DNA from: a virus
Lineage: Duplodnaviria; Caudoviricetes
Direction: 5' to 3' (one strand)
Length of the DNA: 64,000 nt
IMG/VR virus record: IMGVR_UViG_3300028596_000001
Shown here: piece after piece, positions 27,919 to 45,701 of the stretch
Layout of the letters: every line of letters starts with the position of its first letter
Position numbering within the stretch: position 1 is the first letter of the stretch
Notes under the pieces: generated by a model
The model's database searches: none
Seen by the model: the letters and a program-made list of their open reading frames with translations, nothing else
Told to the model about the DNA's origin: nothing
Program-made: the position numbers and the translations under genes

Positions 27919-28203
27919 TTACTTGTTGAAACGGGCTTTCAGTTCTTCCAGCTTACGCAGTTTGGTCTTGCCCGCCTTGCGCGCTTTCCACACAGCAGTA
28001 CCATGTACACGGCAGTACCAATCAATCCACTTGGGGTTCAGACCGAAGGTGGTATCACCGCGAAGCTCTGGTTCTGGATCAGGCCCGAGTTTAGCTTCCA
28101 GTTTAGGCGGTGTACGATTAATAGCGTCGTAGATAGCCTGATCCATACCTGGCATGATCCCGTCGAAGTCGGCGTTCAGGGATTTCAATTTATCATTAGT
28201 CAC
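27919..28203 (-). CDS. WxxWY-module protein
   Basis: Start moved to GTG 28203 (GGAG RBS); NPKWIDWYCRVHGTAVWKARKAG. Confidence 0.6.
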   Translation of the reverse strand: MTNDKLKSLNADFDGIMPGMDQAIYDAINRTPPKLEAKLGPDPEPELRGDTTFGLNPKWIDWYCRVHGTAVWKARKAGKTKLRKLEELKARFNK

Positions 28204-28594
28204 GGGGATACTCCGGATACATTGAGAGACGTTCGGTATGTTTCCTGTAGAGGCGAGGACGTACCTTAACCAATCTAGAGAAAACATCCTTGGTGGTAAA
28301 GAAGTAATCTTCGATCACGTTGAAACCGAGGATACGCAAGCCTTCATCGACCGTAAACAACGGGGCTTTCATGTAGCAGCGATCGCCGTCAAAATCGATC
28401 ATTGCATAACCACGGTTCAATGCAATCTTGCGTGGCACACCGGTTTGACGCATGTGCCATTCGACCCAGTCGTTGGACAAGAGATTATCCGGACCAGCGG
28501 TGAGTTTGGGCTCTGGGTCAGTAGCCAGTTTAATACGTGTCAACACATTGGTCGCATTATGACCAAGAGTACTGGTTAGAGCTTTATGTTTCAT
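28196..28594 (-). CDS. WxxWY-module protein
   Basis: SNDWVEWHMRQTGVPRKIALNRG. Confidence 0.6.
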   Translation of the reverse strand: MKHKALTSTLGHNATNVLTRIKLATDPEPKLTAGPDNLLSNDWVEWHMRQTGVPRKIALNRGYAMIDFDGDRCYMKAPLFTVDEGLRILGFNVIEDYFFTTKDVFSRLVKVRPRLYRKHTERLSMYPEYPRD

Positions 28595-28818
28595 GCTATC
28601 CCCATTTCACGATGGAATACACGCAGCATGGCCTTGTGTACCTTTTCGCCTTCGTCCCGTGGTACGTCCGCCAGGAACTTGGCTTTGTGCGTTCCGGCAC
28701 TTCTTTCGAAAGCATCGGAAGCGTTGTTGAAGCGATAAGCTGGATCAGCTTCTTCAGCTTCCTTGGCCTCCAGCTCGGCAGCCATTTGCTGACGGAAACG
28801 AGTACTCATGATGCCCAT
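28591..28818 (-). CDS. Small hypothetical protein
   Basis: Coupled overlap with neighbours. Confidence 0.6.
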   Translation of the reverse strand: MGIMSTRFRQQMAAELEAKEAEEADPAYRFNNASDAFERSAGTHKAKFLADVPRDEGEKVHKAMLRVFHREMGIA

Positions 28819-28820
28819 GG

Positions 28821-29315
28821 CTATTCCCCTTTGACTTTGAAATGGACGTCATTTTTGATTACAACACGCCCGTCTTCTAAAGCTTCTGAACGAACACCGC
28901 CAGCCAGCGTACGAATTGGTTTCGTTACCCCTTCGATTTTTTCTGGTTTACGTGCGGCATGATACTGCTCAGCCGCTTCCACTTGATGCGGGTGCTTACC
29001 TTTTTCTGCAGACGGCTGCAAATTCAAAGCAAGATTGTTATACAGCTTGAGACCGCCATTGTCCGCTTTGATTTCTGGAGTGATGGCGTAAGACTTACCG
29101 TCTACAGTTACCCACCCGTTAGAGTAGGCAATGCCGCAGAGTTCCCAGAACGACTTGACCACTTTGCGTATGTGGCCAGCTAGGCTTTCAATACCCAGGA
29201 TAATCGCTTTACGATCTTCATCGGAAGCTTGTTGCCAGAAGTCTTTGACGTACTTCTCCAGCGCTTCCTTACCTTCTACGTCAGCCAGGCCACTTACAAA
29301 TTCGTCGAGAGTCAT
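28821..29315 (-). CDS. Hypothetical protein
   Basis: Tiling. Confidence 0.65.
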   Translation of the reverse strand: MTLDEFVSGLADVEGKEALEKYVKDFWQQASDEDRKAIILGIESLAGHIRKVVKSFWELCGIAYSNGWVTVDGKSYAITPEIKADNGGLKLYNNLALNLQPSAEKGKHPHQVEAAEQYHAARKPEKIEGVTKPIRTLAGGVRSEALEDGRVVIKNDVHFKVKGE

Positions 29316-29316
29316 A

Positions 29317-29628
29317 TTACCACCATGCCTTGAGATCGTTAACTACTTTGCCTTCTTGTAAAGCTTGGATACGGATACGGGCAGTAGCCTTAGCCACATT
29401 AGAAGACACCTTTTTCTGCAACCTGTACCAAGCGATCCATACCGGGTTTGCTTTACCTTCAGCGTTGGTCAAACTAGGTTCGTTCATGCACTGAACGACT
29501 TCATTAAAAACCTTATGCGCTCGCAGGTAGCTAACCCCGTGTTGTTGCATATACCACTTGGTCCAGGGTGCAACATTTAAAACACCCTTACTGGTAATAA
29601 GGGATGGCTCTTTGTCATTCGTTATCAT
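29317..29628 (-). CDS. Protein of two tandem WxxWY modules
   Basis: APWTKWYMQQHGVSYLRA and NPVWIAWYRLQKKVSSNVA. Confidence 0.65.
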   Translation of the reverse strand: MITNDKEPSLITSKGVLNVAPWTKWYMQQHGVSYLRAHKVFNEVVQCMNEPSLTNAEGKANPVWIAWYRLQKKVSSNVAKATARIRIQALQEGKVVNDLKAWW

Positions 29629-30106
29629 TGTGTTTCAACCGATCCATGGAGCCAGGGGTACGGATAATGGTCAGGTGGGTGGCCTTATCGCTAAAGACGT
29701 CCTTATGGAAGATGGCACCACCGTCCGCCATCACCCTTTCCCGATTAAGCCGAATCCCGACTCTTGTAGGACCTTTAAAGCCAAGGCAAGCCACCCAGGC
29801 TCTGTACAACAAACGTCGCGTGCCCGGACTGTTGGACACCAGGCGAGTGACGCGGTCCTGGAACGGGTCGAACTTGGGGATGGTGTAAAACCCACCTCGC
29901 GGGCCACCTTTAAAACGATCACCAGTGATTTGTGGCATCGTTTCATGCAGGGTGGTTAGAAAGCTGAAAGCAGGAGTAGACGGCACTGGGTATCCCTGCT
30001 GATCCACCACAATGAACGGTGCGCCACCACCAGGATGAGTAAGGACCTCATCCAAAGTTGGTTTTGGCATTTTCTTCAAAAGTTCGTCTACCAATTTCTT
30101 ATCCAT
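29615..30106 (-). CDS. Hypothetical protein
   Basis: First gene after promoter-like box. Confidence 0.55.
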   Translation of the reverse strand: MDKKLVDELLKKMPKPTLDEVLTHPGGGAPFIVVDQQGYPVPSTPAFSFLTTLHETMPQITGDRFKGGPRGGFYTIPKFDPFQDRVTRLVSNSPGTRRLLYRAWVACLGFKGPTRVGIRLNRERVMADGGAIFHKDVFSDKATHLTIIRTPGSMDRLKHNDNE

Positions 30107-30139
30107 TACCGATTACTCCTTAAAAACTAATGTACTATA

Positions 30140-30162
30140 CACACTAATAATTTAGGCCTGAG
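30140..30162 (-). promoter_or_regulatory. Degenerate early-type promoter
   Basis: Minus strand CTCAGGCC-TAAATTAT-TAGTGTG. Confidence 0.45.
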
Positions 30163-30221
30163 TTCTTGCAGAAATTAAACACTCTATAGGGTACTATATA
30201 CCTACTACAGTGAGAAATAAT

Positions 30222-30938
30222 ATGAAAGAGTTACTACTCTCTGGGGGAGCTCCGAACAATCCTGAACCTACCGGCGATGTGTTGTTTTTGTACGATCCCG
30301 AGACAAGCAAAGACCTTATCTCCGGACAAGTCTGTGTTGCACTATCCGGCGGAGCCGCTGTAGACAATATTACCAAGATTGATGGCAAAGGAACGCTAAA
30401 GTTGGTAGGCGGTGGTAGCCAGGGATTGATTACATTCCCCACCCCGCTCAGCCTTGAAGTATTGTCTGAATGGACAGTTGAATGGGTATCTCGCCCGATC
30501 TCCATTCAAAGTGGTTACGTTACCGAGATGTTTATTGACACTAGCCCTAGCTCAGGTTACCCCATTGGTTGCCGCTGGCCAGATGGTGGTTATGGTAACC
30601 GTGCGCAGTTCAACCTGTCTAACTGGGCGAACGAAAACATTTGGCACCCGCCATTTGCCAAAGCTGCGGCGGAAGGCAATACCATTCGGTGGGCGATGGT
30701 TTATAAAGGTGGGTTGATACGGATCTACAAAGACGGGATTAAACAGTCTTTGGCGGCCGGCACCAGTGGGATCTACGACAAGGACTTCATTTCCAAAACT
30801 GTGTCATGGCCTGTGTACCACAAAATTTACTTGGGGTACTTCAACGGTACTAACTCTGCTTGGACCGGTAACTTCGGCCGTTTACGGATTAGTAACTTTG
30901 CTCGTTATCTCGCCAACTACACACCAGTGCCGTTCTAA
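30222..30938 (+). CDS. LamG/concanavalin-like virion protein
   Basis: EWTVEW..RWAMVYKGGLIRIYKDG..RLRISNFARYLANYTPVPF. Confidence 0.7.
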   Translation: MKELLLSGGAPNNPEPTGDVLFLYDPETSKDLISGQVCVALSGGAAVDNITKIDGKGTLKLVGGGSQGLITFPTPLSLEVLSEWTVEWVSRPISIQSGYVTEMFIDTSPSSGYPIGCRWPDGGYGNRAQFNLSNWANENIWHPPFAKAAAEGNTIRWAMVYKGGLIRIYKDGIKQSLAAGTSGIYDKDFISKTVSWPVYHKIYLGYFNGTNSAWTGNFGRLRISNFARYLANYTPVPF

Positions 30939-30950
30939 TAGGAGGCGTGC

Positions 30951-31670
30951 ATGATTGAGTTACTGAACGGACGCGGGCAACAAATCGTGGAACCAACGGG
31001 TGATGTCGTTCTGTTGTTCGATTACGATACCATGACCAACTTGGTCGATTATCCGATCACTGCGTCTTTGGTAGATGCTTCTATCGATCGCGTTAACTTG
31101 ATTGATGGTGTTCCGGTGTTGTCCAAAGATAACATGAGCACTAGTCGGCTAGTAATCAATTTTGGTATACCGTTAGATTTCTCTGTAGGTAATTGGACCT
31201 TTGAATGGTCTACTTTTACCACTCAGCTGTACGGTGGGTACAGCGGTGAAATGTGGTTCGATGGCGGTAATGTAAGTAATGCGGGTTTCGCTAGTTTCTT
31301 TGGGGACTACGGTTTTGGTAACAGAATTATGCTTGCCGACGGCCAAGCACCGGATACTGCGGACTTGTGGCGGCCCCTGCATTATAAAGCTGATATGTTA
31401 AACAAGTTAGTGCGTTACGCCTGCGTTTATAGAAATGGGTTTTTCTCCTTCTTTATCGATGGTAAGAAACAAGCCATGGAAAACGGCGTTACCAACGGTA
31501 CAGTCAAGACCGACGTTCCGTTGCGTGGCCTAGGTAAAGGAATGACCCGTCTGGAGGTGGGTCGAGTGACCGGTTACAGCCACATCCTCCCTAACATCGG
31601 ACGAGTAGGCAGAATACGTGTTAGCAAATTTGCTCGCTACTCATCGGACTACACACCAACACCATTCTGA
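30951..31670 (+). CDS. LamG/concanavalin-like virion protein
   Basis: NWTFEW..RYACVYRNG..FFIDG..RIRVSKFARYSSDYTPTPF. Confidence 0.7.
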   Translation: MIELLNGRGQQIVEPTGDVVLLFDYDTMTNLVDYPITASLVDASIDRVNLIDGVPVLSKDNMSTSRLVINFGIPLDFSVGNWTFEWSTFTTQLYGGYSGEMWFDGGNVSNAGFASFFGDYGFGNRIMLADGQAPDTADLWRPLHYKADMLNKLVRYACVYRNGFFSFFIDGKKQAMENGVTNGTVKTDVPLRGLGKGMTRLEVGRVTGYSHILPNIGRVGRIRVSKFARYSSDYTPTPF

Positions 31671-31682
31671 TAGGAGGTGGCT

Positions 31683-32600
31683 ATGATCGAAATGTTCCTA
31701 CCGCAGAATACCATTAGTGAACCACCTATCCCAGTTATTGGTGGAGTCTATAAACAACTTGCCAGCGCGGTCACGCCACGGAGTTCCCACTCCGTCGTTG
31801 CCATTGATGGGAAGATCTACGCATTCGGCGGTAGTTATGGTGCTCTCAACAGCACCATGGAAGTTTACGATATCGAAACCAACACTTGGGCACCTGTTGT
31901 TGCTCAAGGCATGCCAAGCCCTCGTCATGGTTGTGCATGCTGTGTATTGAACGGTAAGTTTTATATCTTCGGTGGGTCCACTGGCAACGGCTGGGGGCCG
32001 ATGAGTCAAGAGGTTTATGTATTCGACCCTGCGACGGTAGCCTGGACTAAACTGGCAAACACACCGAATGCGGTTGCGTTGCATACGGCAGTACCCATTA
32101 AAGGCAAGATCTACATATTCGCTGGGTTCAATGGAGGAGCTCCGGTAAACGATCTGTACGAGTATGATCCTGTCGCGAATACCTATCGAACCATTGCTAA
32201 CAGCCAGCCTGTCCAACACGGCCACAAGGCAGTAGCGATCGGCGACCGTATGTTTGTTGTGGGCGGGGTGTCTAGCTCGACATTGCTCAACCGTTGTGTT
32301 GCTTACGACCCTGTAAACAACACCTGGCAACACTACGCGGCTTCTCCTGTTGGTAACACCTACACCTTCGTTGGTGCATTAGGTAACTACATCTACATGT
32401 TTGGGGGTAGCCTTAACAACATCACGACAACCAACAACCGTTTGTTCAAGTTTAGTCTGGAGACTAACAGTTGGGCTGAACTTCCGTCTGGTGCTAGTCC
32501 CGCTTACCTTGGCTGGATGGCCGTCTCGGATAAAGCACTTTATTTGCACGGCGGTTATAACAACACTGCGGTACTTGCCGAGCTTTGGGAAGTCAAGTAA
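31683..32600 (+). CDS. Kelch-repeat beta-propeller protein
   Basis: About six repeats H..V...KIY.FGG......YD.....W; start at ATG 31683 after GGAGG. Confidence 0.9.
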   Translation: MIEMFLPQNTISEPPIPVIGGVYKQLASAVTPRSSHSVVAIDGKIYAFGGSYGALNSTMEVYDIETNTWAPVVAQGMPSPRHGCACCVLNGKFYIFGGSTGNGWGPMSQEVYVFDPATVAWTKLANTPNAVALHTAVPIKGKIYIFAGFNGGAPVNDLYEYDPVANTYRTIANSQPVQHGHKAVAIGDRMFVVGGVSSSTLLNRCVAYDPVNNTWQHYAASPVGNTYTFVGALGNYIYMFGGSLNNITTTNNRLFKFSLETNSWAELPSGASPAYLGWMAVSDKALYLHGGYNNTAVLAELWEVK

Positions 32601-32634
32601 TGCTTAATACTCTATTAACCAAAGGCTAAAGGAA

Positions 32635-33336
32635 ATGATCGAGCTTTTAGGATTCGTTGGTAAATCTAACGTTAGTCCTCCTGTTGGTGTGGATAATTTC
32701 TTCTTCTTTGACGGACCTACTCCCCCAACACTTACCCTGACCTTAGGAGGTTCAGCGGCATTCGAATCGACGCCTACAATCGATGGAAAGACAGCGTCAT
32801 TCACCACCACAGCAGATACGCTAAAAGTTACATTCGGAACCCCTCTTAACTTGAGTACATCCGACTGGACTTTGGAGTGGTCGATAATTAACCAGGCAGT
32901 GCCTGCGGCGGATTACGCTGCTGAGCTGGGGCTGTTTCCAGCTAATGGTGGTGTGGCCGGTCTCCAGGCTCGTTACGGTAGTCCAGGTTTTGGTAACCGT
33001 CTACAGTTCGGTGGGAGAATGGCTGCTCTAGAAACCTGTTATAGTTCTCAATACACTAAATCCGGATTGGTCGGTGTGCTGAAACGTTTTGCCCTGGTTT
33101 CCAAGAACAAGAGCATTACGTTATACGTTAATGGCGTTAGGGAAAACTTTGCGTTGGGTACTACCAACACATACAACACCACGGCTTTTGGATTAGACAC
33201 GGACATGTCTGCCATTACCAACTTGCTGTTGGGTAGTAACCCTCTTGCAGGCGGTTCTGTATTGGCTAAGCGTGGTCCGGTGAAACTCAGCATGTTCGCT
33301 AAGTACAGTGCCAATTACACGCCGGTTCCATTTTGA
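32635..33336 (+). CDS. LamG/concanavalin-like virion protein
   Basis: DWTLEW..RFALVSKNK.ITLYVNG..KLSMFAKYSANYTPVPF. Confidence 0.7.
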   Translation: MIELLGFVGKSNVSPPVGVDNFFFFDGPTPPTLTLTLGGSAAFESTPTIDGKTASFTTTADTLKVTFGTPLNLSTSDWTLEWSIINQAVPAADYAAELGLFPANGGVAGLQARYGSPGFGNRLQFGGRMAALETCYSSQYTKSGLVGVLKRFALVSKNKSITLYVNGVRENFALGTTNTYNTTAFGLDTDMSAITNLLLGSNPLAGGSVLAKRGPVKLSMFAKYSANYTPVPF

Positions 33337-33393
33337 AGCAAAAAAAAGAAACATATACTACCCCTAGCCCTTAACGGGGCTAGGGGTAGTATA
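33337..33393 (-). terminator. Intrinsic terminator, near-copy of 6699-6757
   Basis: CAAAAAAAAGAAA then TATACTACCCCTAGCCC-TTAACG-GGGCTAGGGGTAGTATA. Confidence 0.8.
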
Positions 33394-33397
33394 GTCA

Positions 33398-33958
33398 CTA
33401 TAGGTTTTTCAGGACCTTGCCCTTACGCTGATATTCAGCCAACGCTTCCCGTGGAATTTCTGGATCGATATCCGGGTGTTGGTGGACGATGCTGTCATCC
33501 AGTTGCTGGCGGATTACTTCAAGTGCTAACTTGAGTTTCTCACCGTCCATCTCGCCCAGCGAGCCATCCAGGTTTCTACCGGCCTTGTACTGTTCGTGTT
33601 GGAAAGTACCCGATTCCTTGATACCGGCTGCCCACAACTGGGTCATCACGTAGGACTCAAGGTACTTACCGTAGAACAAATCCACGTTGAGCAGTTGCCC
33701 TTTGTGGAAGTGCAGCTTCGACGCATTACCGTCGAGAATGCCGGTGAAGGTCAGAAGATCTTTTTCGTAAGCCGCTTTAGCTTCCGCCAAATACTCCAGC
33801 GGGTAATTGTGGTAAACCGCTTTGATTTGGCCATCAGCGCCAACATCGATACCACCAATACCGAGATCCCAACGAACTTGCGTATGGAAACCTTTTTCGA
33901 TCTGTACGCCATGGAAGCCAAGACCCTCCTGGAAGTTAATATCAGTTACCCAACCCAT
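33398..33958 (-). CDS. Hypothetical protein
   Basis: AGGAG RBS, tiling. Confidence 0.65.
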   Translation of the reverse strand: MGWVTDINFQEGLGFHGVQIEKGFHTQVRWDLGIGGIDVGADGQIKAVYHNYPLEYLAEAKAAYEKDLLTFTGILDGNASKLHFHKGQLLNVDLFYGKYLESYVMTQLWAAGIKESGTFQHEQYKAGRNLDGSLGEMDGEKLKLALEVIRQQLDDSIVHQHPDIDPEIPREALAEYQRKGKVLKNL

Positions 33959-33967
33959 AACAGCTCC

Positions 33968-34645
33968 TTACATCACTTGTAGTCCATTGAGATTCAACAG
34001 AGTAAACTTACCACGACCAGGTTTCCACCCTTCAGTGTCGATGTAATAAGTGTTACCCAACTTCAACATATCCGTTACCGGGTTATGTCCCACTACCAAG
34101 GCGCGAACACCTGTAATCCTGGTAGTGTCTTTCTCTTCGAACCGTGCACGGCTGTACATGCACTTGTTCATTACCTTCTTGTGTTCCTTACGACGGCTAT
34201 CGTCACGCAGACGCGCTACAAGCTCATCCCAGCTGTCGTAAGCACAACCGGCATGCACAATACCAACTAACCCGTATTTGGTCTCTACCTCGATTGCAAT
34301 GGGCAGAGCATCAAAAGGAACAGAGAACAACTCCTGCTCTTGTGGGGTGAACGCTTTAAACCAACTACCGGCGTTTTCTAACCAACTGGGCGAGGTCAGA
34401 TAACGAGAAACATGGTCGTCATGATTACCCTTTACCGAGAACACCCAGTCTTTGTTTAACCAATTAAAAGCTTCACGGTTCTCCGGCCCACGATCAACCA
34501 GATCTCCTACAATGAACAAACGATCAATCAGTGGGTTGAACTTAATCCGGTCCAATTCCACCTGTAGGTAACTGAAGTGCCCATGCACATCACCTACAGC
34601 GATATCTCGCCCCTCGGTGTTTACTCCAAATCGCTTAACATACAT
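33968..34645 (-). CDS. Metallophosphoesterase (lambda NinI / PphA-like Ser/Thr phosphatase)
   Basis: GDVHG, VGDLVDRGP, GNHD, HAG, GHNP, IDT motifs. Confidence 0.9.
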   Translation of the reverse strand: MYVKRFGVNTEGRDIAVGDVHGHFSYLQVELDRIKFNPLIDRLFIVGDLVDRGPENREAFNWLNKDWVFSVKGNHDDHVSRYLTSPSWLENAGSWFKAFTPQEQELFSVPFDALPIAIEVETKYGLVGIVHAGCAYDSWDELVARLRDDSRRKEHKKVMNKCMYSRARFEEKDTTRITGVRALVVGHNPVTDMLKLGNTYYIDTEGWKPGRGKFTLLNLNGLQVM

Positions 34646-34660
34646 AGCCCCATTCCTTTA

Positions 34661-35194: not shown

Positions 35195-35216
35195 AATAGT
35201 TCTCCTTTAAGTAAAA

Positions 35217-35244
35217 CTATCTAGCGGTGTTACCCGCTAGATAG
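35217..35244 (-). terminator. Hairpin closing the membrane operon
   Basis: CTATCTAGCGG-TGTTAC-CCGCTAGATAG with adjacent A-run. Confidence 0.65.
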
Positions 35245-35256
35245 CCACACTGCTTA

Positions 35257-35814: not shown

Positions 35815-35832
35815 TTTCTTGCTTTCCTTGAG

Positions 35833-37330: not shown

Positions 37331-37540
37331 TCACCTCGGCAAACAAGAAATGAAGAAAACCCACATGCCGATAACAGCAAGGATCAGCAACCAAAACCAA
37401 AGGTCATCGTTCAACTCTTTGGGTTGGTCTGCTTTAGCTGTACCGGGTTTGCGTATGTATACAAATACACCAGTAGAAGGGTCGTCTATGACGACCTCTT
37501 CTTTGGCTATGTATTGTCCCTCAATTGGTTTTGAGGGCAT
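37331..37540 (-). CDS. Small C-terminal TM protein
   Basis: LWFWLLILAVIGMWVFFISC. Confidence 0.55.
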   Translation of the reverse strand: MPSKPIEGQYIAKEEVVIDDPSTGVFVYIRKPGTAKADQPKELNDDLWFWLLILAVIGMWVFFISCLPR

Positions 37541-37790
37541 TGAGTCCTTCCTCGTACTGTTGTCTGAGTTCCGCTTGTTTCAAGCGTACTTGCAGGCATT
37601 CAGGAGTGGCGTATTCTTCCGCACAGACAGTACGGTTGTGGGCGTCTTTAAGACGACGAGCATTTTCCCCGTCAACCTTGATGCCGTAGAACACCGCCCC
37701 ATAAACAAGGACTACGATAAGTGCGAATATAGCAACGACAAACCAGCACCCAGGTCCGCCCTTAATTAGGATTTCCCCCAGTCGTTTCAT
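37521..37790 (-). CDS. TM + C-x8-C protein
   Basis: CAEEYATPEC. Confidence 0.7.
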   Translation of the reverse strand: MKRLGEILIKGGPGCWFVVAIFALIVVLVYGAVFYGIKVDGENARRLKDAHNRTVCAEEYATPECLQVRLKQAELRQQYEEGLNALKTN

Positions 37791-38017
37791 TTAAGCAACT
37801 CCTTTTGTCGACTTTCCAACAAGAGTTTCTCGATCTTGTACTGGTGGCAAGGAATGGTGTCGAAGCGACCAACACAATTGGTCTTGTTATCTTCACGGAT
37901 CTCGCCACGACGCATCTCAACCCACTTCTCTATTAGCAGTACGGAAGGCACGCCTATCACAACAATAATAGCAATGCGGCTCAAATACCACCACCACCAC
38001 GTATTACGTCCTCTCAT
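37787..38017 (-). CDS. TM + C-x8-C protein
   Basis: CVGRFDTIPC. Confidence 0.7.
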   Translation of the reverse strand: MRGRNTWWWWYLSRIAIIVVIGVPSVLLIEKWVEMRRGEIREDNKTNCVGRFDTIPCHQYKIEKLLLESRQKELLK

Positions 38018-38247
38018 TTATTTACTTCCTTCAGCTTGCGCTGGTACTCTTCTTCGATAACCGATTTCTGAAGCTTCTTAGTGTGGCAGGCAGGGAGATC
38101 CCACTCAGCCTCACAGTTCTTCTTCTGCAAGTCTTCATTGGCCTCGTAGAAACCATAGGAAAAGCAAGTAACACACAGCAAGAACATTCCAACTAACGAA
38201 AATACAAACCGGCCGCTGGTGCCGTCTTCGTCATCATAACAACTCAT
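38014..38247 (-). CDS. TM + C-x8-C protein
   Basis: CEAEWDLPAC. Confidence 0.7.
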   Translation of the reverse strand: MSCYDDEDGTSGRFVFSLVGMFLLCVTCFSYGFYEANEDLQKKNCEAEWDLPACHTKKLQKSVIEEEYQRKLKEVNK

Positions 38248-38480
38248 TTATTTAGTTCCTGGAGTTTTTGTTCGTAGGCTTCTTTAGCCTGTACTTTCTT
38301 TATGCGCTTTTCCAAACAGTCGACGGTTTCATATTCGACAGTACACAGATCCGCACGTTCACGCCGATCATATTCGGTAGACGCTTTGCCAATACCAATC
38401 AAGACAAGAATAATCACCGCCACCGTACTGAGGAGTTTTAATCCGTCCATAAAGGTGAAGCGGGTATCATTTCGACTCAT
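38244..38480 (-). CDS. TM + C-x8-C protein
   Basis: CTVEYETVDC. Confidence 0.7.
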   Translation of the reverse strand: MSRNDTRFTFMDGLKLLSTVAVIILVLIGIGKASTEYDRRERADLCTVEYETVDCLEKRIKKVQAKEAYEQKLQELNK

Positions 38481-38760
38481 TGCTCTCTCCCGCTTTAAGG
38501 GTTTCTTCGAGCGCCTTAGTCAGACAAAGAGGATTGTTCATCAGTAACTTACACTCCGATTTAGTGGGTGTGTTACGAATAACCTCTTGCTGCCGTTTGG
38601 CGTCTGCCAGGAACGCTTCGGTGGTCTTTTTGTAGTCAGCACTGAGGGCCGCCAGCTGTACCAAGAAAGAAATACAGATAGTAGGAATGGCTGCCATGCA
38701 AAACAAGAACAACCAATCCCAACGGTTAAGGCTACGTACTTTCTTTACGATCTGCTTCAA
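38467..38760 (-). CDS. TM + C-x8-C protein
   Basis: CKLLMNNPLC. Confidence 0.65.
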   Translation of the reverse strand: MKQIVKKVRSLNRWDWLFLFCMAAIPTICISFLVQLAALSADYKKTTEAFLADAKRQQEVIRNTPTKSECKLLMNNPLCLTKALEETLKAGESNESK

Positions 38761-39284
38761 TCGCCACAGCTCCCACCACCACTGTCGCCACCACTGCTGC
38801 CGCTATCGCCGCTATCACTACCACGGCCGTAGTCTGTCGGTGTATCGATAACGCAAGCGCTACGCTCAGGGCGACGGTAGCTGTCGTCATCACCGCTGGA
38901 CAGCACAGTATGTGCTACTGCCAGGTGCATGAGCGTATTGTCTGGTTCATGGTAACGTGGACCGGGCTGTTGGCCAGGATAATTCACACGACGCATTGGA
39001 GGAGGTGGTGGTGGTTGGCGATTCTGGCCAGTTAACGGATGTACTGGCGGAATAGAGCGCGTATAACCGGCAGGGGCTTCATGCATGCCGTAACCAGGAT
39101 TAACGCTAGATTTCCAGGTTGGGGTCTCGGGGCTTTCCATTGGCTCTTCCCCATGGTTTCTACGTAGGGCTTCAATGAACTCCTTATCCCCTGGCTTTAC
39201 CTTGATACGGCTACGGAACATCACGAAACCAACACACGCGCCACCCAGGCCAATTACACCCAGTACAATCGATCCCAAATCCAT
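38757..39284 (-). CDS. N-terminal TM protein with Pro-rich middle and Gly/Ser/Asp tail
   Basis: Ends GSDSGDSGSSGGDSGGGSCGD. Confidence 0.7.
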   Translation of the reverse strand: MDLGSIVLGVIGLGGACVGFVMFRSRIKVKPGDKEFIEALRRNHGEEPMESPETPTWKSSVNPGYGMHEAPAGYTRSIPPVHPLTGQNRQPPPPPPMRRVNYPGQQPGPRYHEPDNTLMHLAVAHTVLSSGDDDSYRRPERSACVIDTPTDYGRGSDSGDSGSSGGDSGGGSCGD

Positions 39285-39347
39285 AAATAATCTCCCGTGG
39301 TTAAAGTACCTACCGGAGTCCCGAAGGACCCCGATAGGATTTCTAAA

Positions 39348-39674
39348 TTATTGTTTAGACAGTAACGAAATACGGCGCTTACCTTCCGCAAATGCTTCCG
39401 GGCCAGTACGCCCGGTTTGAGCTTTATACCAATCCATCCAACTAGCCGAAGGAGAGAAAGGATCAAAGGTGCTAAGCATGACAGGCTCTGGGGTAGGAGG
39501 CATGTTATCTGGGTGATTATTCCCGGACTTACCTTGCTGCCAATTGAGAGTACTGGTATTGGCATCTACCAGATACAACTCCTTCTCATAACCGTCCACA
39601 GTTACCTTGTAGATGATCTTCCCCTCGTGGTTGCGCCCCACTTGGTCTACCCGCGCGTTCTTTTCCAGGTTCAT
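39348..39674 (-). CDS. WxxWY-module protein
   Basis: SASWMDWYKAQTGRTGPEAFAEG. Confidence 0.6.
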   Translation of the reverse strand: MNLEKNARVDQVGRNHEGKIIYKVTVDGYEKELYLVDANTSTLNWQQGKSGNNHPDNMPPTPEPVMLSTFDPFSPSASWMDWYKAQTGRTGPEAFAEGKRRISLLSKQ

Positions 39675-39677
39675 GGT

Positions 39678-40238
39678 TTACTCCGGTTTAGGCTTAGGGA
39701 AGATTCCGTCGGCAGGATCCCGGTATGCACCATAGGTCGGGTCGATAACCGCCGTCAGCGTTTTCCAGTTCTCGAGCAGCTTCTCCAGACCCTCTTGAGT
39801 TAATCCAAGGGTAGCTGGGTTGGCAACTTCGAAACAGTCAACGATAAGCTTACCGGGCAACTTAGGGAACTTCTTTAGGATCTCGGCGCCCAGATGCGCC
39901 ATATCGTTTTGATCCAAGATCCCCACGCAGTAGGCAACACGGTTAACCATGAGGCTGATTCGCGACAGGACCATCGAACGATCTTCGAAACTTTTACGTA
40001 CTTCTTTCAAAGTACGACGGAACCCTACAGCTTCCATAAACGATTCGCCAGATTTAGAAGGCAGCCAGTTGCTGAAGTAACCGTCCGGAATGACCCGAAC
40101 CTCCACACCTTTGTCAACTACTTTACCCTCGATAGCATCGATTGCAACGCCGTGAGGTATTAAAGTCCCTTGACGCAACATGCGACCGAGCGACTGCTTA
40201 TTAACTGGTTCTGGCTGAGTATCTTTATCTTTTGTCAT
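39678..40238 (-). CDS. Hypothetical protein
   Basis: Tiling. Confidence 0.65.
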   Translation of the reverse strand: MTKDKDTQPEPVNKQSLGRMLRQGTLIPHGVAIDAIEGKVVDKGVEVRVIPDGYFSNWLPSKSGESFMEAVGFRRTLKEVRKSFEDRSMVLSRISLMVNRVAYCVGILDQNDMAHLGAEILKKFPKLPGKLIVDCFEVANPATLGLTQEGLEKLLENWKTLTAVIDPTYGAYRDPADGIFPKPKPE

Positions 40239-40240
40239 TA

Positions 40241-40618
40241 TTACATTCCTCGTTTAAGAGCCAAACTGTAAGCATACGCTTCTTCTGGGGACATCTTGTC
40301 TTCACGGGCCATGTGCATCACCCAAAGCAAAGAGATATGTCCATCAGAAGTAAGCATGGTATCTGGAACAGGGATGATGTTGTCAGGAATGGTAAGAACC
40401 AAATCAGCAACAATCTTCCGTTTTATAGTTTCCCCGTAGTCCCTTACCATACGGTCACCTACGTTCTTCGCTTGTCCAAAACGAGGAATTTGTTTTACTC
40501 TACCTAACAAGTGAGGCTTCCAATACTCAATCCAGACGTCGTTCACTTCATCTGGATTGGTGGTAAATACCGAAGGTTCGTTGTCCTTCGGTAAGTACAA
40601 AACTATTCCGTCGTCCAT
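40241..40618 (-). CDS. Hypothetical protein with weak WxxWY-like module
   Basis: LLWVMHMAREDKMSPEEA. Confidence 0.55.
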   Translation of the reverse strand: MDDGIVLYLPKDNEPSVFTTNPDEVNDVWIEYWKPHLLGRVKQIPRFGQAKNVGDRMVRDYGETIKRKIVADLVLTIPDNIIPVPDTMLTSDGHISLLWVMHMAREDKMSPEEAYAYSLALKRGM

Positions 40619-41031
40619 TACTCTTCCTTGGTCTCTGGGCCAACCTGAACAAGCTTATTACAATCCAGCTCACCCCAGACGCCAGCGTGATAAGCCGACC
40701 CATAACCCACGTTGTGGGTATAGCGGTACCAAATGATCCACTCCAAACGCGATACTTGTTTGGGACCATTGCCGACAGATGCCTCAATAAATTTAATCGG
40801 CTCGATGCTCGGATCCATGTAACGGAGAGGTTCTTCTTCGAGGAGCTTGATAACTTCCTCACCACGTTGATAAGCCTGCATGAGGTTCGTACGTGGGTTG
40901 TTACGAATATACCAGGCAAGCCAATGCACACTAACAGGGCGGCGATGGTTACCAGTGAAGATGCAAGGCTCGTCCAATGCTGGCTGGTAAGTGACGTTGG
41001 TGTTATTAACGTCCAGAGCTTTGTCGTTCAT
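40618..41031 (-). CDS. Protein of two WxxWY modules
   Basis: HWLAWYIRNNPRTNLMQAYQRG and EWIIWYRYTHNVGYGSAYHAG. Confidence 0.65.
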   Translation of the reverse strand: MNDKALDVNNTNVTYQPALDEPCIFTGNHRRPVSVHWLAWYIRNNPRTNLMQAYQRGEEVIKLLEEEPLRYMDPSIEPIKFIEASVGNGPKQVSRLEWIIWYRYTHNVGYGSAYHAGVWGELDCNKLVQVGPETKEE

Positions 41032-41036
41032 GTTGA

Positions 41037-41627
41037 TTACTCTTTTCCTAAGAAGGTTTTACTTGCTGTAAAGTACACTTGTTTACGATCGAACACACAG
41101 AACTCGGCTTTACCTGCGGAACCATGACCACTACCGCCGTGGATGGCTCCGTCATAGCCGAGCTTACGCAATCTGTTCACTTCCATGAGGCTTTCGAAGA
41201 AACGATGGGCCTGGAAGTACAACTTGGATAAATCATCTCGCTCCGACAGGTATTCCGGAACACTCCGGAAATACATACTCAGCTTGCGCCAATTGTCGGT
41301 TTCTTCAATATACTTGGCGAAACGGAGAGCGATCCGCTTAGCTTCGCCTTTACCCAAACGTTCAGCCACGTCACTGAGTTCCAGGAACGGATCATCAGGC
41401 TGGTCGATAAAAGGTCGGTCCAGTACCAAATGAACCGGGTAGACACGTGAGGTGTAATAGTTGCCAGTGGTGCTGTCGACCTCGGAATAGATGTTGGCCG
41501 TGTCGATATCTCCGAAATACAAAGCACGGAGATTAGACTTAGGCGTATCGTAAGCGGGGTGGGTACATTCGCCCCGGAACAAACGCAAAGCCTGACCATC
41601 AGGTCCTTTATAAAACGGCATAACCAA
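41037..41627 (-). CDS. ADP-ribosyltransferase-like protein (ART-PolyVal-like)
   Basis: LFRG ... LYFG..TANIYS ... VYPVHL..RPF ... GYDGAI ... EFCVFDRKQV. Confidence 0.7.
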   Translation of the reverse strand: MVMPFYKGPDGQALRLFRGECTHPAYDTPKSNLRALYFGDIDTANIYSEVDSTTGNYYTSRVYPVHLVLDRPFIDQPDDPFLELSDVAERLGKGEAKRIALRFAKYIEETDNWRKLSMYFRSVPEYLSERDDLSKLYFQAHRFFESLMEVNRLRKLGYDGAIHGGSGHGSAGKAEFCVFDRKQVYFTASKTFLGKE

Positions 41628-41634
41628 CTCCTTA

Positions 41635-42273
41635 TTAATAACCTTCTTGGTCGTCGATAGCGTGGTCGAAGAAATACGACATACCAGAGAAACCGAAGTG
41701 GTGGAACATCATGACCTTACCTTTGAAATGGGTAAGGCCTTTTTCACGCGCCCACTTGTAGTACGACTTCTTGATGAGGTCTTTCTCATCTTCGATAGTC
41801 CACTTATCGTGTTCACGCAGCCACTTGGCGTTGGTGGATACTTGGAAGCCCCAGACTTCTTTGTCGTTGTAGATAACCCCGTGGTTACCTTCAGCGATCA
41901 TGCGCTCAATGATCTCACCCCAGCGCACCTTTTCCGCGAAGTACTTCAGTACGTGCTTCACCGGGCACTTGGCCGACATGATGTTATCCAGCAACGAACG
42001 TTGCATGAAGCGTGGTACGTTGTGGTAGTTACGTTGGCACAGCTGGATGATCTTCTTCGGGTTATCGGTGAAGTAACGGTAGAAGTAATCGATCAACTGG
42101 TTTTCCTGTTCGATCGGATACAGCGAATCATCCAGAACGAAAGGTGGTGGGGTCTTACGGAAACTAGGCGGGGTTTTGGTATACTGCTTCCAAGCCAAGG
42201 CCAGTTCGCTCAGGGCTTCGTCAGACAGTTTAGCGTTAGCCAGCTCTTGTTTCAACTCAGTGGTAGCGTCCAA
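41635..42273 (-). CDS. Hypothetical protein
   Basis: Tiling. Confidence 0.65.
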   Translation of the reverse strand: MDATTELKQELANAKLSDEALSELALAWKQYTKTPPSFRKTPPPFVLDDSLYPIEQENQLIDYFYRYFTDNPKKIIQLCQRNYHNVPRFMQRSLLDNIMSAKCPVKHVLKYFAEKVRWGEIIERMIAEGNHGVIYNDKEVWGFQVSTNAKWLREHDKWTIEDEKDLIKKSYYKWAREKGLTHFKGKVMMFHHFGFSGMSYFFDHAIDDQEGY

Positions 42274-42582
42274 TTACTTATTCCTTTCCTGTAAACGTTT
42301 ATTTTTGCTGCGGATATTACGATTAGTACGACGAAGTTGTTTAACCTCGTCTTCCAGCCACAACATACGTTGGGCTACGGCAGCTATCACATGTTCTGGG
42401 ATAGTGGTTTCTTCCAGGTGCTCGGTAGCCAATAGGTCTACCAGAATCTCTTCGGTAGACTTTTCTGGATAGATGAACTCCGCACGAGTAATGGGTTGGT
42501 TAAGTTTATATTTTGTAGCAAAATACGCCAAGTGGTCTTTAACCAGTACCCCATTGGAATCGAAGTTTAAACGATTACCCAT
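42274..42582 (-). CDS. Hypothetical protein with C-terminal coiled coil
   Basis: LEDEVKQLRRTNRNIRSKNKRLQ. Confidence 0.6.
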   Translation of the reverse strand: MGNRLNFDSNGVLVKDHLAYFATKYKLNQPITRAEFIYPEKSTEEILVDLLATEHLEETTIPEHVIAAVAQRMLWLEDEVKQLRRTNRNIRSKNKRLQERNK

Positions 42583-42591
42583 GGAACCCCC

Positions 42592-42981
42592 TTAGTGCTT
42601 GACGACTTCTTTCTTGTTCTGATACTCGTCGACGTAGGTTTTAACGCCAGTGATCAGAACATCGACGATGTCGTCATCGAGTTTATCTTCACCATGGAAC
42701 ATGACGGTCATGCGCATGTCCTTTTTGTCTTTCAGTGAGTGCGCAGTTAACAGGCCGATCTGCTGAGTACCTTTCTGCTCGGCGATTTGGATGGCGATCA
42801 TCTTCTGCTTCTTGTTGTTCTTGCCTTCGGCGCAGTTGAACAAGAAGTGGCGACCGCGGAGTACTTCTGGGATCGACTCAGCGTGATCAAAGATCAATGC
42901 CGGGATAGTCTGCTGTTCGTGGATGAACTGGAACAGTGCATCATAGGTTTTGGTGAACGGGGATTTCTTGACGATAGCCAT
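42592..42981 (-). CDS. Hypothetical protein (probable paralog of 42991-43425)
   Basis: IPALIF, L.G.HFLF, DKL..L...YV. Confidence 0.65.
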   Translation of the reverse strand: MAIVKKSPFTKTYDALFQFIHEQQTIPALIFDHAESIPEVLRGRHFLFNCAEGKNNKKQKMIAIQIAEQKGTQQIGLLTAHSLKDKKDMRMTVMFHGEDKLDDDIVDVLITGVKTYVDEYQNKKEVVKH

Positions 42982-42990
42982 TGTGGCTCC

Positions 42991-43425
42991 TTAGTGAATA
43001 GTAGTATTGCCTGGCAGAACGGTAGCTGCCATTTCTTCTTTGGTGATAAACTGCATGCTGTCGTCCTCTACTTTGAAGACATACCCGTGCAGCATGGATA
43101 CCAACTCTTGGGTTTCCCGTGGGCTGAGGTCGTCCAGCATGCTCAGAGGGGTAATACAGAAACCACCATCTTGATCTTCAAAGATCACACGCAACGGTTC
43201 GTAGTCCTTCTCTGGGTCACCTGTGTTACCGATCAGCTTGAGGATAACCAACCCCAAACCACCCATGGGATTACGGGCGATGGTAAACATGAACGACGCA
43301 CCATCCAGACGATGAACTTCGTTCTTGAAGATAGCCGTGATAACCAACCCCGGCATGTCTTCCTTTTCCAGGTATTCATCGAACGCGGTTACCAGCTTAT
43401 CAATAGCACCTTTTTCTTCTTTCAC
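42991..43425 (-). CDS. Hypothetical protein (probable paralog of 42592-42981)
   Basis: MPGLVI, L.G.SFMF, DDL..L...YV. Confidence 0.65.
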   Translation of the reverse strand: MKEEKGAIDKLVTAFDEYLEKEDMPGLVITAIFKNEVHRLDGASFMFTIARNPMGGLGLVILKLIGNTGDPEKDYEPLRVIFEDQDGGFCITPLSMLDDLSPRETQELVSMLHGYVFKVEDDSMQFITKEEMAATVLPGNTTIH

Positions 43426-43458
43426 GATTACAATACTCCTTAAACAAAGTTATTGCTA

Positions 43459-43481
43459 CACCCAGGTAATATAGATGCGTA
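43459..43481 (-). promoter_or_regulatory. Early-type promoter TATATTAC
   Basis: Minus strand TACGCATC-TATATTAC-CTGGGTG. Confidence 0.65.
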
Positions 43482-43501
43482 ATCCGGTTAAAACTAATAT
43501 A

Positions 43502-43529
43502 CCTCTATCCCTCCTAGGAGGGATAGAGG
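43502..43529. repeat. Perfect 28-bp palindrome centred on CCTAGG
   Basis: CCTCTATCCCTCCT|AGGAGGGATAGAGG. Confidence 0.85.
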
Positions 43530-43536
43530 CTATGGG

Positions 43537-44148
43537 TCAGATGCGGATCTCTGCCAACTTCCGAACGAAGATGATTTCGAGGTTGTTGACCTCTGCCGGG
43601 TACCAGGCCCAGTCCTTCTCTTCGCGGTTGAGTTCTTTTGCTACACGCTCAGCGCCGGCTTGCCAGGCGGTGGTGGTGTCGACGGAGTAAATAGAGCGAT
43701 ACCACTCGAGCCAGTCTTTTTCCAGAGTCGGTATGGAATCACGCTTGAAGCTGCAGAGCTTCGGTTCTTTCGGGCCTTTCGCAGCATAGTTCGAAAATTC
43801 GTGGAGGAACTGCTGCATGGCGGCCAATGGGTTGAACCCCTGGATACCTTCGGGCACTTCCACTACGATCATGTTCGACTGGATGCGCCTGGCGCCCATA
43901 CGCTGTTCAATAGCGTCGCTGATTTCTTTATATACGTCTTTGGTTCTGAAGCCCCACAGGGTATTATCGGACGTCACCACACCGATTTCAACGGTTTCGC
44001 CGCCGTACCCCCAGTTGGCTAAAAGCCAGCTGGTGAACTGGCGGTCGTTCATACGACCCAGGGTGTCGACAGCCAGTTTCTTGACATGCAGCAACTCTTC
44101 TTCGGTGAGGTTGTCACGGACGTACATATTGTTAACACGAACAGACAT
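43537..44148 (-). CDS. Protein with C-terminal WxxWY module
   Basis: EKDWLEWYRSIYSVDTTTAWQAG. Confidence 0.65.
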   Translation of the reverse strand: MSVRVNNMYVRDNLTEEELLHVKKLAVDTLGRMNDRQFTSWLLANWGYGGETVEIGVVTSDNTLWGFRTKDVYKEISDAIEQRMGARRIQSNMIVVEVPEGIQGFNPLAAMQQFLHEFSNYAAKGPKEPKLCSFKRDSIPTLEKDWLEWYRSIYSVDTTTAWQAGAERVAKELNREEKDWAWYPAEVNNLEIIFVRKLAEIRI

Positions 44149-44164
44149 GCGTAGCTCCTGCTAT

Positions 44165-45070
44165 TTAGAAAACAGTGATGGGGTTGTTGGTATAGACCGT
44201 GAAGTTACGAGTACCGTGTTCCATCTTGGCTTTATAAGTGTCGTACTGTGCCCCGTGTTCTTTTTCAAGTTCACGGCAGACCTTGTACGCACCGATCTTG
44301 ATTTCTTCGTCAACCATCTGTGCGACGAAAGCAATGTCACGATGGTTTGTTTTCGAAACGAATACATGCCACGCCAGCCAGTCTACTGGAATATAGCGAA
44401 CACCTTTGATAGCGTCAGCCCAATTCCACTTGCTAGGCTCGGACTTCGTGTATTCACTTGCCTTCCAGTGATCACCCAGGGCTTTGAGTAGGTACCGTAG
44501 GACCCCACCAACGATCTCATCGGAAACCCGATTGGAATACACCTCAAAGGTGCTCTTGGTGATAATCGCCAGGACTTCCATGTTGGACTTCTTGTGGATA
44601 ACAATAGATCCGGTATGGAAGGTTTGCACCTGGAACCAGCCGAGGTCCCATTCCTTCTGTTCTACTATGAACAAGCCCAGCAGGCCCAATGCATCATACA
44701 ACGTCTGGAATTCGTTGCAGTATGGATGCCGGTCGTACTTGACTGGGAGTCCTTTGTCACCGTACTCACCTTGGTCTTTGTCAAGATGCCGGCGCAACAA
44801 GTCAGCGAAGGCAGCATTGATGCGCTTAGGTGGGAAAGCTTCCTGCAAAGCACTACCACCGCTGTAAACAAACTTACCGGTGCCCTCAGAGTAGTAACCC
44901 ACCGCGATACCGTCCAACATAACGTGTATATTGTTGCTTACCGCAGCGGATGGTGCTCTGTGAAGAATGATCGAACCAGTCTTGTTCTTGAACAGCTCGC
45001 TTGGATTCAATCTGAACCCATAAGCGTACAGCATGTTCATTCGTTCTTTAAGGGGGATATCTTCAGCCAT
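44165..45070 (-). CDS. Protein with C-terminal WxxWH module
   Basis: PVDWLAWHVFVSKTNHRDIA. Confidence 0.65.
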   Translation of the reverse strand: MAEDIPLKERMNMLYAYGFRLNPSELFKNKTGSIILHRAPSAAVSNNIHVMLDGIAVGYYSEGTGKFVYSGGSALQEAFPPKRINAAFADLLRRHLDKDQGEYGDKGLPVKYDRHPYCNEFQTLYDALGLLGLFIVEQKEWDLGWFQVQTFHTGSIVIHKKSNMEVLAIITKSTFEVYSNRVSDEIVGGVLRYLLKALGDHWKASEYTKSEPSKWNWADAIKGVRYIPVDWLAWHVFVSKTNHRDIAFVAQMVDEEIKIGAYKVCRELEKEHGAQYDTYKAKMEHGTRNFTVYTNNPITVF

Positions 45071-45399
45071 TAATGTCGCTCCCTGCTATTGAATTCCGAC
45101 TTGGTAACTTCCTTGAGGATGAGTTGCACCCCGCCCTTTGGATGCTGGGTTTGGGAAGTCACCGTAAAGCCACGCTTGGAAACCAGGATGGCACGTTCAG
45201 CCAAAGGCTGGATACATACCGACCCAACTTTGAGCTGGCGTTTAAGCTTGCGCATCTCTGGGAGCACAGGCAAGCCAAAAACTTGAAAGCAGTAGTCGTC
45301 TATCAGCTCTTCGAAGAGACTTTTAGCCTTTTCGGCATCCAGTCCTTCGAAGAGCTTTTCGAAACGACCCTTCAATACTTCTTCAGTATTGTCGGTCAT
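45070..45399 (-). CDS. Hypothetical protein
   Basis: TAATG coupling with neighbours. Confidence 0.6.
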   Translation of the reverse strand: MTDNTEEVLKGRFEKLFEGLDAEKAKSLFEELIDDYCFQVFGLPVLPEMRKLKRQLKVGSVCIQPLAERAILVSKRGFTVTSQTQHPKGGVQLILKEVTKSEFNSRERH

Positions 45400-45701
45400 T
45401 ACTTCTCCTTAATCATTTCCACCAACGGTATGGGCGAGTAGAAGTCCTTAGCCGGAATGTATTCTTTTACGAATACTGTACATTCCTTCATCAGGTCCTC
45501 GTCGCTTTTCTCGAGCAACTCGATAGTCTGGTTTGCATTGGCCAGAAAATCTTTCATCTTCTTGGCCAGGTGTTCCATGGCCACTTCCATGGTCAGATTA
45601 TGCTGAGCCATATATTCAGCCAACCACACCTTATTAACGTCAGGGGAATCGACGTTAGTGAACAGCCATGGACGGCGAAAAGACATAGAGCTATTAGGCA
45701 T
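45399..45701 (-). CDS. Hypothetical protein with weak WxxWY-like module
   Basis: NKVWLAEYMAQHNLTMEVA. Confidence 0.6.
   Translation of the reverse strand: MPNSSMSFRRPWLFTNVDSPDVNKVWLAEYMAQHNLTMEVAMEHLAKKMKDFLANANQTIELLEKSDEDLMKECTVFVKEYIPAKDFYSPIPLVEMIKEK

Follow-up and report, generated by a model that had tools for sequence, protein, structure and literature searches.

Here we describe a small protein module that recurs in a 64,000-nucleotide stretch of DNA (the window; all positions refer to it unless stated otherwise) from the IMG/VR virus record IMGVR_UViG_3300028596_000001. By sequence alignment, the module is a unit of ~45 residues, composed of an arm with an EP-x-L motif and a WxxWY...A...G segment. 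It very probably represents a new autonomous domain family, for which we propose the name 'PEPxL-WxxWY' mini-domain, and tentatively we read it as a nucleic-acid-binding unit. Family members consist of the module alone, of arrays of two to four, or of a module joined to diverse sequences without known family. This agrees with the first-pass annotation of the window, which had described the module as occurring alone, doubled or appended to different sequences. The family has been multiplied in the accessory region of an EL-related clade of nucleus-forming jumbo phages with genomes of ~230 to 240 kb. No name, Pfam family, PHROG family, solved structure or published description was found for the module, and the literature on the motif, on phage EL gp84, gp89, gp92 and gp133, and the jumbo-phage survey of Iyer et al. 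gave no account of it.

The first-pass annotation had reported nine copies of a ~25-residue module, W-x2-W-[YH] followed by Ala and Gly, in seven open reading frames (ORFs) that were otherwise unrelated. A six-frame regular-expression scan of the window found W-x2-W-[YH] at all nine of these places in the seven ORFs, all on the minus strand, with the codons for the first Trp at 28029, 28468, 29439, 29565, 39440, 40740, 40923, 43713 and 44380. The few remaining matches lay in short or wrong-frame ORFs. The Ala follows the Tyr or His at +11 in seven copies and at +12 in two, also as reported. However, alignment of 58-residue stretches revealed an extra signature, [DEKP]-E-P-x-[LIVM], ~10 to 20 (up to 22) residues before the first Trp. 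The WxxW...A...G part of the original description thus stands, whereas its size does not, since the missed arm extends the unit to ~45 residues. Among 43 modules from the window and four syntenic loci, the Pro and both Trp residues were invariant and the Glu and Tyr nearly so. The consensus of 189 modules was xxPEPxLxGxxxGxLNxxWVxWYRxxxGVSxxxAxxxGxxRLxxL, with conservation of 97% for E, 100% for P, 100% and 98% for the two W, 82% for Y, 91% for A and 64% for G. We defined membership of the family as E-P-x-[LIV], ~10 to 20 residues, W-x2-W-[YFH], 10 to 12 residues to Ala, and x3-[GAC]. Eight window copies match this pattern fully, and the copy at 44380 and those in the ORFs starting at 40241 and 45399 match it partly.

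The motif was strongly enriched when compared with shuffled controls, the first check that had been proposed for it. These counts were made on a rough gene set from 184 kb of the ~233-kb full genome, inside which the window lies. W-x2-W-[YH] occurred 9 times against an expected 0.86 ± 0.91 (maximum 4 in 500 residue shuffles), and the longer pattern EP-x(10,22)-W..W[YH] occurred 8 times against 0.03. A 25-residue hidden Markov model (HMM) of the nine copies found nothing else above 8.7 bits in the six-frame translation of the 184 kb, so every copy in that sequence is confined to the two clusters within the window that had been noticed before. An independent HMM, built from metagenomic representative proteins that may include clusters containing the window's own proteins, recovered eight window copies at 27.6 to 65.3 bits, with the next noise match at 7.1 bits. 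Chance or compositional recurrence of Trp-rich peptides is contradicted by the shuffled controls, by this independent profile and by conservation across relatives, and its probability is negligible.

The modules, all on the minus strand, are given here with their scores in the independent HMM. Module 1 (27949..28074; 65.3 bits) has the canonical form EPELRG...WIDWY...A...G and lies at the C-terminus of ORF 27919-28287; its orthologues show 86 to 88% identity inside the module. The orthologous frames in relatives are just 91 to 96 residues long from stop to stop, and the true start of this ORF is therefore probably an internal ATG near 28152 (MPGMDQ...). Under the longest start, ORFs 27919-28287 and 28196-28594 overlap by 92 nucleotides. 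Module 2 (28388..28513; 44.9 bits), canonical with EPKLTAG...WVEWH...A...G, occupies the N-terminal half of ORF 28196-28594 (132 residues). Modules 3 (29485..29610; 53.6 bits) and 4 (29359..29481; 50.1 bits) are the first and second members of a tandem pair in ORF 29317-29628 (103 residues), and the EP of module 4 is separated from helix 2 of module 3 by a single residue. Module 5 (39360..39488; 37.5 bits) lies at the C-terminus of ORF 39348-39674 (108 residues), the orthologues of which carry two modules in two related loci (L008 and L013). A second tandem pair, in ORF 40618-41031 (137 residues), comprises module 6 (40843..40971; 34.8 bits, together with orthologue alignment) and module 7 (40660..40803; 27.6 bits), which has a longer arm. 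Module 8 (43633..43767; 37.9 bits) spans residues 128 to 172 of ORF 43537-44148 (203 residues). Module 9 (44300..44440), with the divergent sequence SEPSKW...WLAWH..., spans residues 211 to 257 of ORF 44165-45070 (301 residues). It was not recovered by the independent HMM and reached 28.1 bits only with an HMM that includes it; its orthologues scored 6 to 11 bits with the independent HMM. This copy, with its Trp at 44380, is thus the most divergent of the nine.

The two weaker copies mentioned in the first-pass annotation fared differently. A probable derived module in ORF 45399-45701 (45546..45674; 100 residues; RPWLF...VWLAEYMAQH...), in which the second Trp is replaced, scored 15.2 bits, above the best of 40 shuffled proteomes (13.1 bits), and its orthologues scored 8.2 to 20.8 bits. 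The probable degenerate module in ORF 40241-40618 (40454..40579; 125 residues; NEPSVF...DVWIEYW) is the weaker case, as its score of 11.6 bits was also reached in 2 of the 40 shuffled proteomes; its orthologues scored 7.6 to 17.9 bits. For both ORFs, the orthologues that gave similar scores came from four to five related phages. Counting these two copies, the window probably holds ~11 modules in nine genes. BLAST similarity among the seven proteins with clear copies was restricted to the module unit, and at this sensitivity the carrier proteins are indeed otherwise unrelated.

The gene content of the phage places it among the nucleus-forming jumbo phages of the EL/RisingSun group, because it encodes homologues of their RNA polymerase, nuclear shell protein, PhuZ and chaperonin. 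The beta subunit of its multisubunit RNA polymerase is nearest, among cultured phages, to those of Pseudomonas phage EL (55% identity) and Erwinia phages RisingSun and Joad (56%). The homologue of the RisingSun nuclear shell protein (genome positions 156740-158905) is 45% identical over 672 residues, and that of RisingSun PhuZ (genome positions 165129-166169) is 38% identical. A GroEL-like chaperonin, 38% identical to its RisingSun homologue, is encoded at 18979-20673 of the window on the minus strand, so that the phage has its own chaperonin, as EL does. A search of sequencing runs detected DNA of this phage only in soil and wastewater metagenomes, with no RNA run among the matches. Early expression of the module proteins, as described in the first-pass annotation, is therefore an assumption.

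The module region differs from this core. None of the 41 genes called between 26 and 47 kb of the window had a RisingSun homologue at E ≤ 1e-5, whereas core genes are 45 to 56% identical, and by this comparison the interval 26000-47000 is clade-specific accessory DNA throughout. The complete RisingSun genome, searched in six frames with both HMMs and with filters off, contained no module; the best scores were 8 to 11 bits, in junk ORFs. No copy was found in phages phiKZ, FishSpeaker, PDCC-1 and Miami in a first-pass search. The absence from RisingSun, the lack of RisingSun homologues at 26 to 47 kb and these first-pass negatives together indicate, as far as genome comparison goes, that the module belongs to the variable, clade-specific accessory region and not to the core of nucleus-forming phages. 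Neither the region nor two of the module proteins matched any of 50,697 phage records in megablast and tblastn searches. A search of this type with a representative of the double-module protein gave only a weak match in phage PaBG, in an unannotated stretch, and a search of IMG/VR with the 203-residue protein found no relative.

When 1.84 billion representative proteins were searched with a profile built from the 43 modules, at least 150 protein clusters matched at E ≤ 1e-3, 32 of them at E ≤ 1e-10. Among the 150 matches listed, 88 proteins had one copy, 55 had two, 5 had three and 2 had four. Their lengths ranged from 45 to 618 residues, and 24 of the 150 were of 80 residues or fewer, with little beyond one or two modules. 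Proteins made up almost entirely of two to four modules in a row are common. None of the 20 module clusters that were looked up had a functional name. All of the genomic contexts examined were jumbo-phage contigs, many of them of 200 to 240 kb. Four syntenic loci from related uncultured phages were reached through homologues of the double-module protein, with 57 to 70% identity. Five loci of ~20 kb each (L008, L010, L012, L013 and L024) contained ~10 or more profile matches apiece, and L025 was similar; all six are syntenic with the window. Besides the four loci reached first, four more contained three to ~12 profile matches in 20 kb or less; the two long ones among these are L024 and L025, which have 26 and 11 ORFs, respectively, in common with the window genome. 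For every paralogue, separate orthologues exist in the relatives. The module is also present in cultured phage EL, in gp133 (two copies), gp84, gp89 and gp92, all of which are annotated as hypothetical.

The structure of the module was predicted with AlphaFold2 from the module alignment. The mean predicted local distance difference test (pLDDT) score was 77.5, with 86 to 87 over the helices and 56 to 74 in the arm. In the numbering of the first copy, residues 14 and 21 form a beta-bridge, residues 23 to 33 form helix 1, and a three-residue turn leads to helix 2 at residues 37 to 57. According to this model, the module would fold alone, with a short beta-hairpin as its arm and a helical hairpin behind it. 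In the arm, an EP-x-L strand would pair with a G-L-N strand, and each strand would carry the Leu of its motif. The Trp, Trp and Tyr at positions i, i+3 and i+4 would share one face of helix 1 and pack on the Ala-x3-Gly of helix 2 together with the Leu and Pro of the arm. The Ala and Gly would lie one turn apart on helix 2, where their small side chains would make room for the indoles, and the Asn or Ser right before helix 1 would occupy a typical helix-cap position. From this modelled placement, the signature residues look fold-determining rather than like a binding surface. The first-pass annotation had proposed a UBA-like helix-turn-helix; the hairpin of two helices is borne out by the prediction, whereas the likeness to UBA is not, as the model consists of an arm and two helices and neither Pfam nor any fold search returned a UBA match.

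The tandem protein of ORF 40618-41031 was also modelled with 11 orthologues, yielding a pLDDT of 59 and a predicted template modelling score (pTM) of 0.40. At low confidence, its second module showed a beta-hairpin at residues 81 to 94 followed by two helices, and the model was too weak to judge inter-module packing. Another reading is that modules associate with one another, either by docking of an EP-x-L arm onto the Trp face of a second module or by pairing of hairpins into four-helix bundles. Helical hairpins commonly dimerise, and tandem pairs are frequent in the family. Furthermore, between 10 and 22 residues separate EP from the first Trp, and this variable length, with the lower model confidence of the arm (pLDDT of 56 to 74), would allow the arm to act as a flexible docking peptide. 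The tandem model, however, contained no confident packing between modules, and we regard such arm exchange or self-association as quite improbable. A complex prediction with two module copies scored 0.05 against a mark of 0.42 and was used as evidence neither way.

Fold and family searches with the module gave no significant match outside phage EL proteins. Foldseek returned nothing significant in the PDB (E ≥ 3.7) or in the AFDB clusters (E ≥ 1.3), and neither did a wide VIA-align search (Z ≤ 4.7) or the ESM Atlas for the module model. Look-ups of the 301-residue, 203-residue and double-module proteins in the ESM Atlas gave no usable match. The best neighbours in BFVD were two proteins of phage EL, Q2Z0U8 (89 residues, template modelling (TM) score of 0.71) and Q2Z0Z7 (143 residues, TM score of 0.59), which are equal in length to gp133 and gp84, respectively. 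The weak fold neighbours were recurrently DNA binders, namely homeodomains, HU, IHF, Hbb and pA104R. Pfam (at E ≤ 1) and PHROG scans of the nine proteins yielded nothing usable. Matches of sequence profiles in the PDB were due to chance, to a framework-2 peptide of nanobodies with the sequence 'W..WYRQ.PG'. A Pfam scan of the 150 listed representatives (P0010-P0159) gave only one endolysin and one GP17 domain. The endolysin is probably a false profile match on its PG_binding_1 region. The other protein bears PF17420 (GP17, 'superinfection exclusion gene product 17') with an E value of 5e-21. The EP motif was also considered as a cleavage site of the prohead protease, for which the rule in phiKZ is S/A/G-x-E; this was rejected, as the residues before the Glu do not fit the rule and a Pro follows it.

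The reading toward which we lean, with some reservation, is that of a portable binding domain, similar in geometry to a helix-turn-helix, which would anchor itself or its fused partner to nucleic acid. We lean this way because of the helix-turn-helix-like turn, the basic short proteins, the charge of the helical part, the DNA binders among the weak fold neighbours and the tandem arrays. The proteins of 80 residues or fewer have a median isoelectric point (pI) of 9.7, with 88% of them above pI 8 and many with Lys/Arg-rich tails, and the net charge of the helical part (30 residues) averages +2.4. Nucleic-acid-binding repeats typically come in tandem arrays of one to four units, and large viruses commonly have small promiscuous DNA-binding modules with variable fusion partners. 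The sites recognised would then differ between paralogues, and the reuse of the module would resemble that of Myb or of the Bro-N/KilA-N modules of other large viruses. The module-only proteins, the arrays of up to four and the poor conservation outside the signature argue that the module is more than a passive tag.

Several observations, however, weigh against nucleic-acid binding. Neither by fold nor by sequence was any DNA- or RNA-binding family matched significantly in Pfam, Foldseek or VIA-align. The charge is not uniformly basic, as 29% of the modules lie on the acidic side (pI < 6) and, of the eight canonical copies in the window, three have a net charge of -1. Helix 2 has no conserved polar or basic residue besides one Arg/Lys position (67%). 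Some of the stand-alone proteins of 80 residues or fewer are truncated gene calls; for example, P0022 is an internal-start version of ORF 29317-29628. In addition, cytoplasmic proteins of the Chimalliviridae need import to reach the phage DNA.

The pattern of conservation also bears on whether the modules share a target at all. Outside the signature residues, the mean column identity was only 21 to 24%, and the surface residues were weakly conserved among paralogues and among orthologues alike. Orthologue identity within the module ranged from 26 to 88% and was not consistently above that of the rest of the protein. One could read this as one scaffold with many ligands, where the signature builds the fold, each paralogue has a specific surface and no common target exists. 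The low column identity, the span of module charges from -4 to +9 and the presence of separate orthologues for each paralogue in related phages fit this reading. Specific binders would not be expected to have surfaces so weakly conserved even between orthologues, however, and the clustering of the genes and their repeated tandem duplication suggest a shared activity. We therefore consider the scaffold reading unlikely.

The neighbours of the module genes are mostly without family. The exceptions are a GNAT acetyltransferase, a metallophosphatase, kelch and LamG-like genes on the plus strand, and an ART-like gene, and the loci of the relatives additionally hold Acb1-like genes. This gene content suits an accessory region for host takeover or counter-defence. 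Immediately downstream of the ART-like gene 41037-41627 is the double-module gene 40618-41031. In all five relatives compared (L008, L010, L012, L013 and L024), a gene of ~197 residues precedes the double-module gene, and those of L012 and L013 have a weak Pfam match to PF18760 (ART-PolyVal). The ART-like gene and the double-module gene may thus form a functional pair, judging from this arrangement.

Such a setting invites the explanation that the first-pass annotation had favoured, a protein-protein docking tag through which one common protein or compartment of the phage or host gathers unrelated accessory proteins. Candidate partners would include an enzyme of the host and, from the phage, the chimallin shell or the import machinery that belongs to it. 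Many unrelated and unannotated sequences bear the module, often at their C-terminus; the Glu-Pro and the two Trp are kept more strictly than core packing usually demands; the phage is nucleus-forming, with chimallin and PhuZ encoded; and the ART-like, GNAT, metallophosphatase and Acb1-like neighbours are likely host-takeover or counter-defence genes. However, proteins that consist of one to four modules alone would be tags without cargo, and no conserved surface patch was left once the residues assigned to the core were set aside. The orthologue identities given above, no higher within the module than elsewhere in the protein with any consistency, also speak against a conserved docking surface. 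On balance, a docking tag is possible but doubtful. Its nucleus form meets a further difficulty, as the module is absent from RisingSun and was not found in a first-pass search of four other jumbo phages; it would therefore not address nucleus machinery that these phages share, and a general address tag for the phage nucleus is unlikely. A clade-specific address system is a narrower version, in which one hub would read the Glu-Pro and Trp-Trp-Tyr elements and gather a dozen unrelated effectors, with the stand-alone modules competing or regulating. On the host side, the ribosome, RNA polymerase or the nucleoid and, on the phage side, a component of the nucleus or early-vesicle machinery that is specific to the EL clade are candidate hubs; we consider such a system distinctly unlikely.

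Some further features of the region were recorded. Five consecutive small genes on the minus strand at 37521-38760, coding for 89, 76, 77, 78 and 97 residues, each have one transmembrane segment followed by Cys-x(5-9)-Cys and a charged C-terminal helix; they have the appearance of paralogous small membrane proteins arrayed in tandem. A chance 'WWWWY' match sits in one of these five genes. GC-rich hairpins on the minus strand, some with a T run, were found in the rare intergenic gaps at 43426-43536, 39285-39347, 35195-35256 and ~33340-33397; they look like intrinsic terminators that would split the minus-strand array into short operons. The sequence CCTAAATTATT at 30146-30156 on the minus strand, upstream of gene 29615-30106, resembles a promoter annotation in phage EL. 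EL has two 'putative phage promoter' features, AACCTA[CG]ATTATT, and the gp132-gp133 module genes of EL follow closely after one of them. The site at 30146-30156 is the single occurrence of the EL-type motif CCTA-N-ATTATT in the window, too few to define a class of early promoters.

Most accessory genes of nucleus-forming jumbo phages are without known function. Through the module, about nine genes here, four in EL and at least 150 protein clusters from metagenomes become members of a single family, so that one ligand, if found, would give an annotation to many proteins together. The family is directly open to experiment, because EL can be grown and has Pseudomonas aeruginosa as its host. Should the module prove to be a common address or anchor, it would reveal the way in which these phages organise accessory proteins that are probably early. 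If it is a DNA- or RNA-binding mini-fold, it would still be a new, very small and self-folding domain that deserves a structure and a Pfam entry.

Finally, we compared the module with known systems. The closest are the four proteins gp133, gp84, gp89 and gp92 of phage EL, which have the same module by profile (44.9, 54.7 and 37.8 bits) and by predicted structure. Their genes sit among small hypothetical genes beside an acetyltransferase gene, as in the phage studied here. EL has five or six modules in four proteins compared to ~11 in nine here, and its proteins are without described function.

The module resembles the UBA, CUE and EF-Ts N-terminal domains in its small size and in its pattern of helix, G-x and helix. 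However, three helices and an MGF/MGY loop make up the UBA bundle, whereas the AlphaFold2 model has two helices and a beta-bridged arm. A UBA, CUE or TS_N identity was rejected, as Pfam at E ≤ 1 was negative for the nine proteins and none of these families appeared among the 150 listed representatives. Myb/SANT repeats have ~50 residues and invariant core Trp residues, occur in one to four tandem copies and bind DNA. The module is analogous to them in size, invariant Trp core, helix-turn-helix, one to four tandem units and fusions. In contrast, Myb/SANT repeats have three helices with the Trp residues 18 to 19 apart, and the module has two helices, W-x2-W and the EP-x-L arm. A Myb/SANT identity was likewise rejected, because the invariant Trp residues are three residues apart on one helix and no Pfam match was found.

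Among other DNA-binding folds, classical helix-turn-helix domains have their turn (Gly, a hydrophobic and a polar residue) within a winged fold or a bundle of at least three helices. The module has a G-[VC]-[ST] turn (G 37%, V/C 67% and S/T 52%) and two predicted helices. The model has no third helix, however, no helix-turn-helix family matched in Pfam, and homeodomains matched only at E ≥ 3.7. The ribbon-helix-helix proteins (Arc/MetJ/CopG), which are obligate dimers through their N-terminal strand, resemble the module in the order of elements (strand, helix, G-x-S, helix), but the arm of the module is a hairpin 10 to 20 residues long. Pfam gave no ribbon-helix-helix match, and no such chain was among the fold matches listed. 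The N-terminal hairpin of HU/IHF and the homeodomains could be aligned with TM scores of 0.57 to 0.64 over 38 to 49 residues (Z score of 4.5 for IHF; Foldseek E values of 3.7 to 9.5). These scores are at the noise level for short helical models, no sequence similarity accompanies them, and the beta-arm of HU is absent from the module.

A parallel of another kind is provided by Bacillus phage G, in which a small zinc ribbon has expanded to ~35 copies and has been proposed as a transcription factor or structural DNA binder (Iyer et al. 2021, PMC7824862). In both cases, a tiny domain was multiplied within one jumbo-phage lineage. The zinc ribbon differs from our module in its fold and phage group, and its function is putative as well. 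The kind is thus familiar, a small promiscuous domain with lineage-specific expansion, whereas the PEPxL-WxxWY family itself appears to be new.

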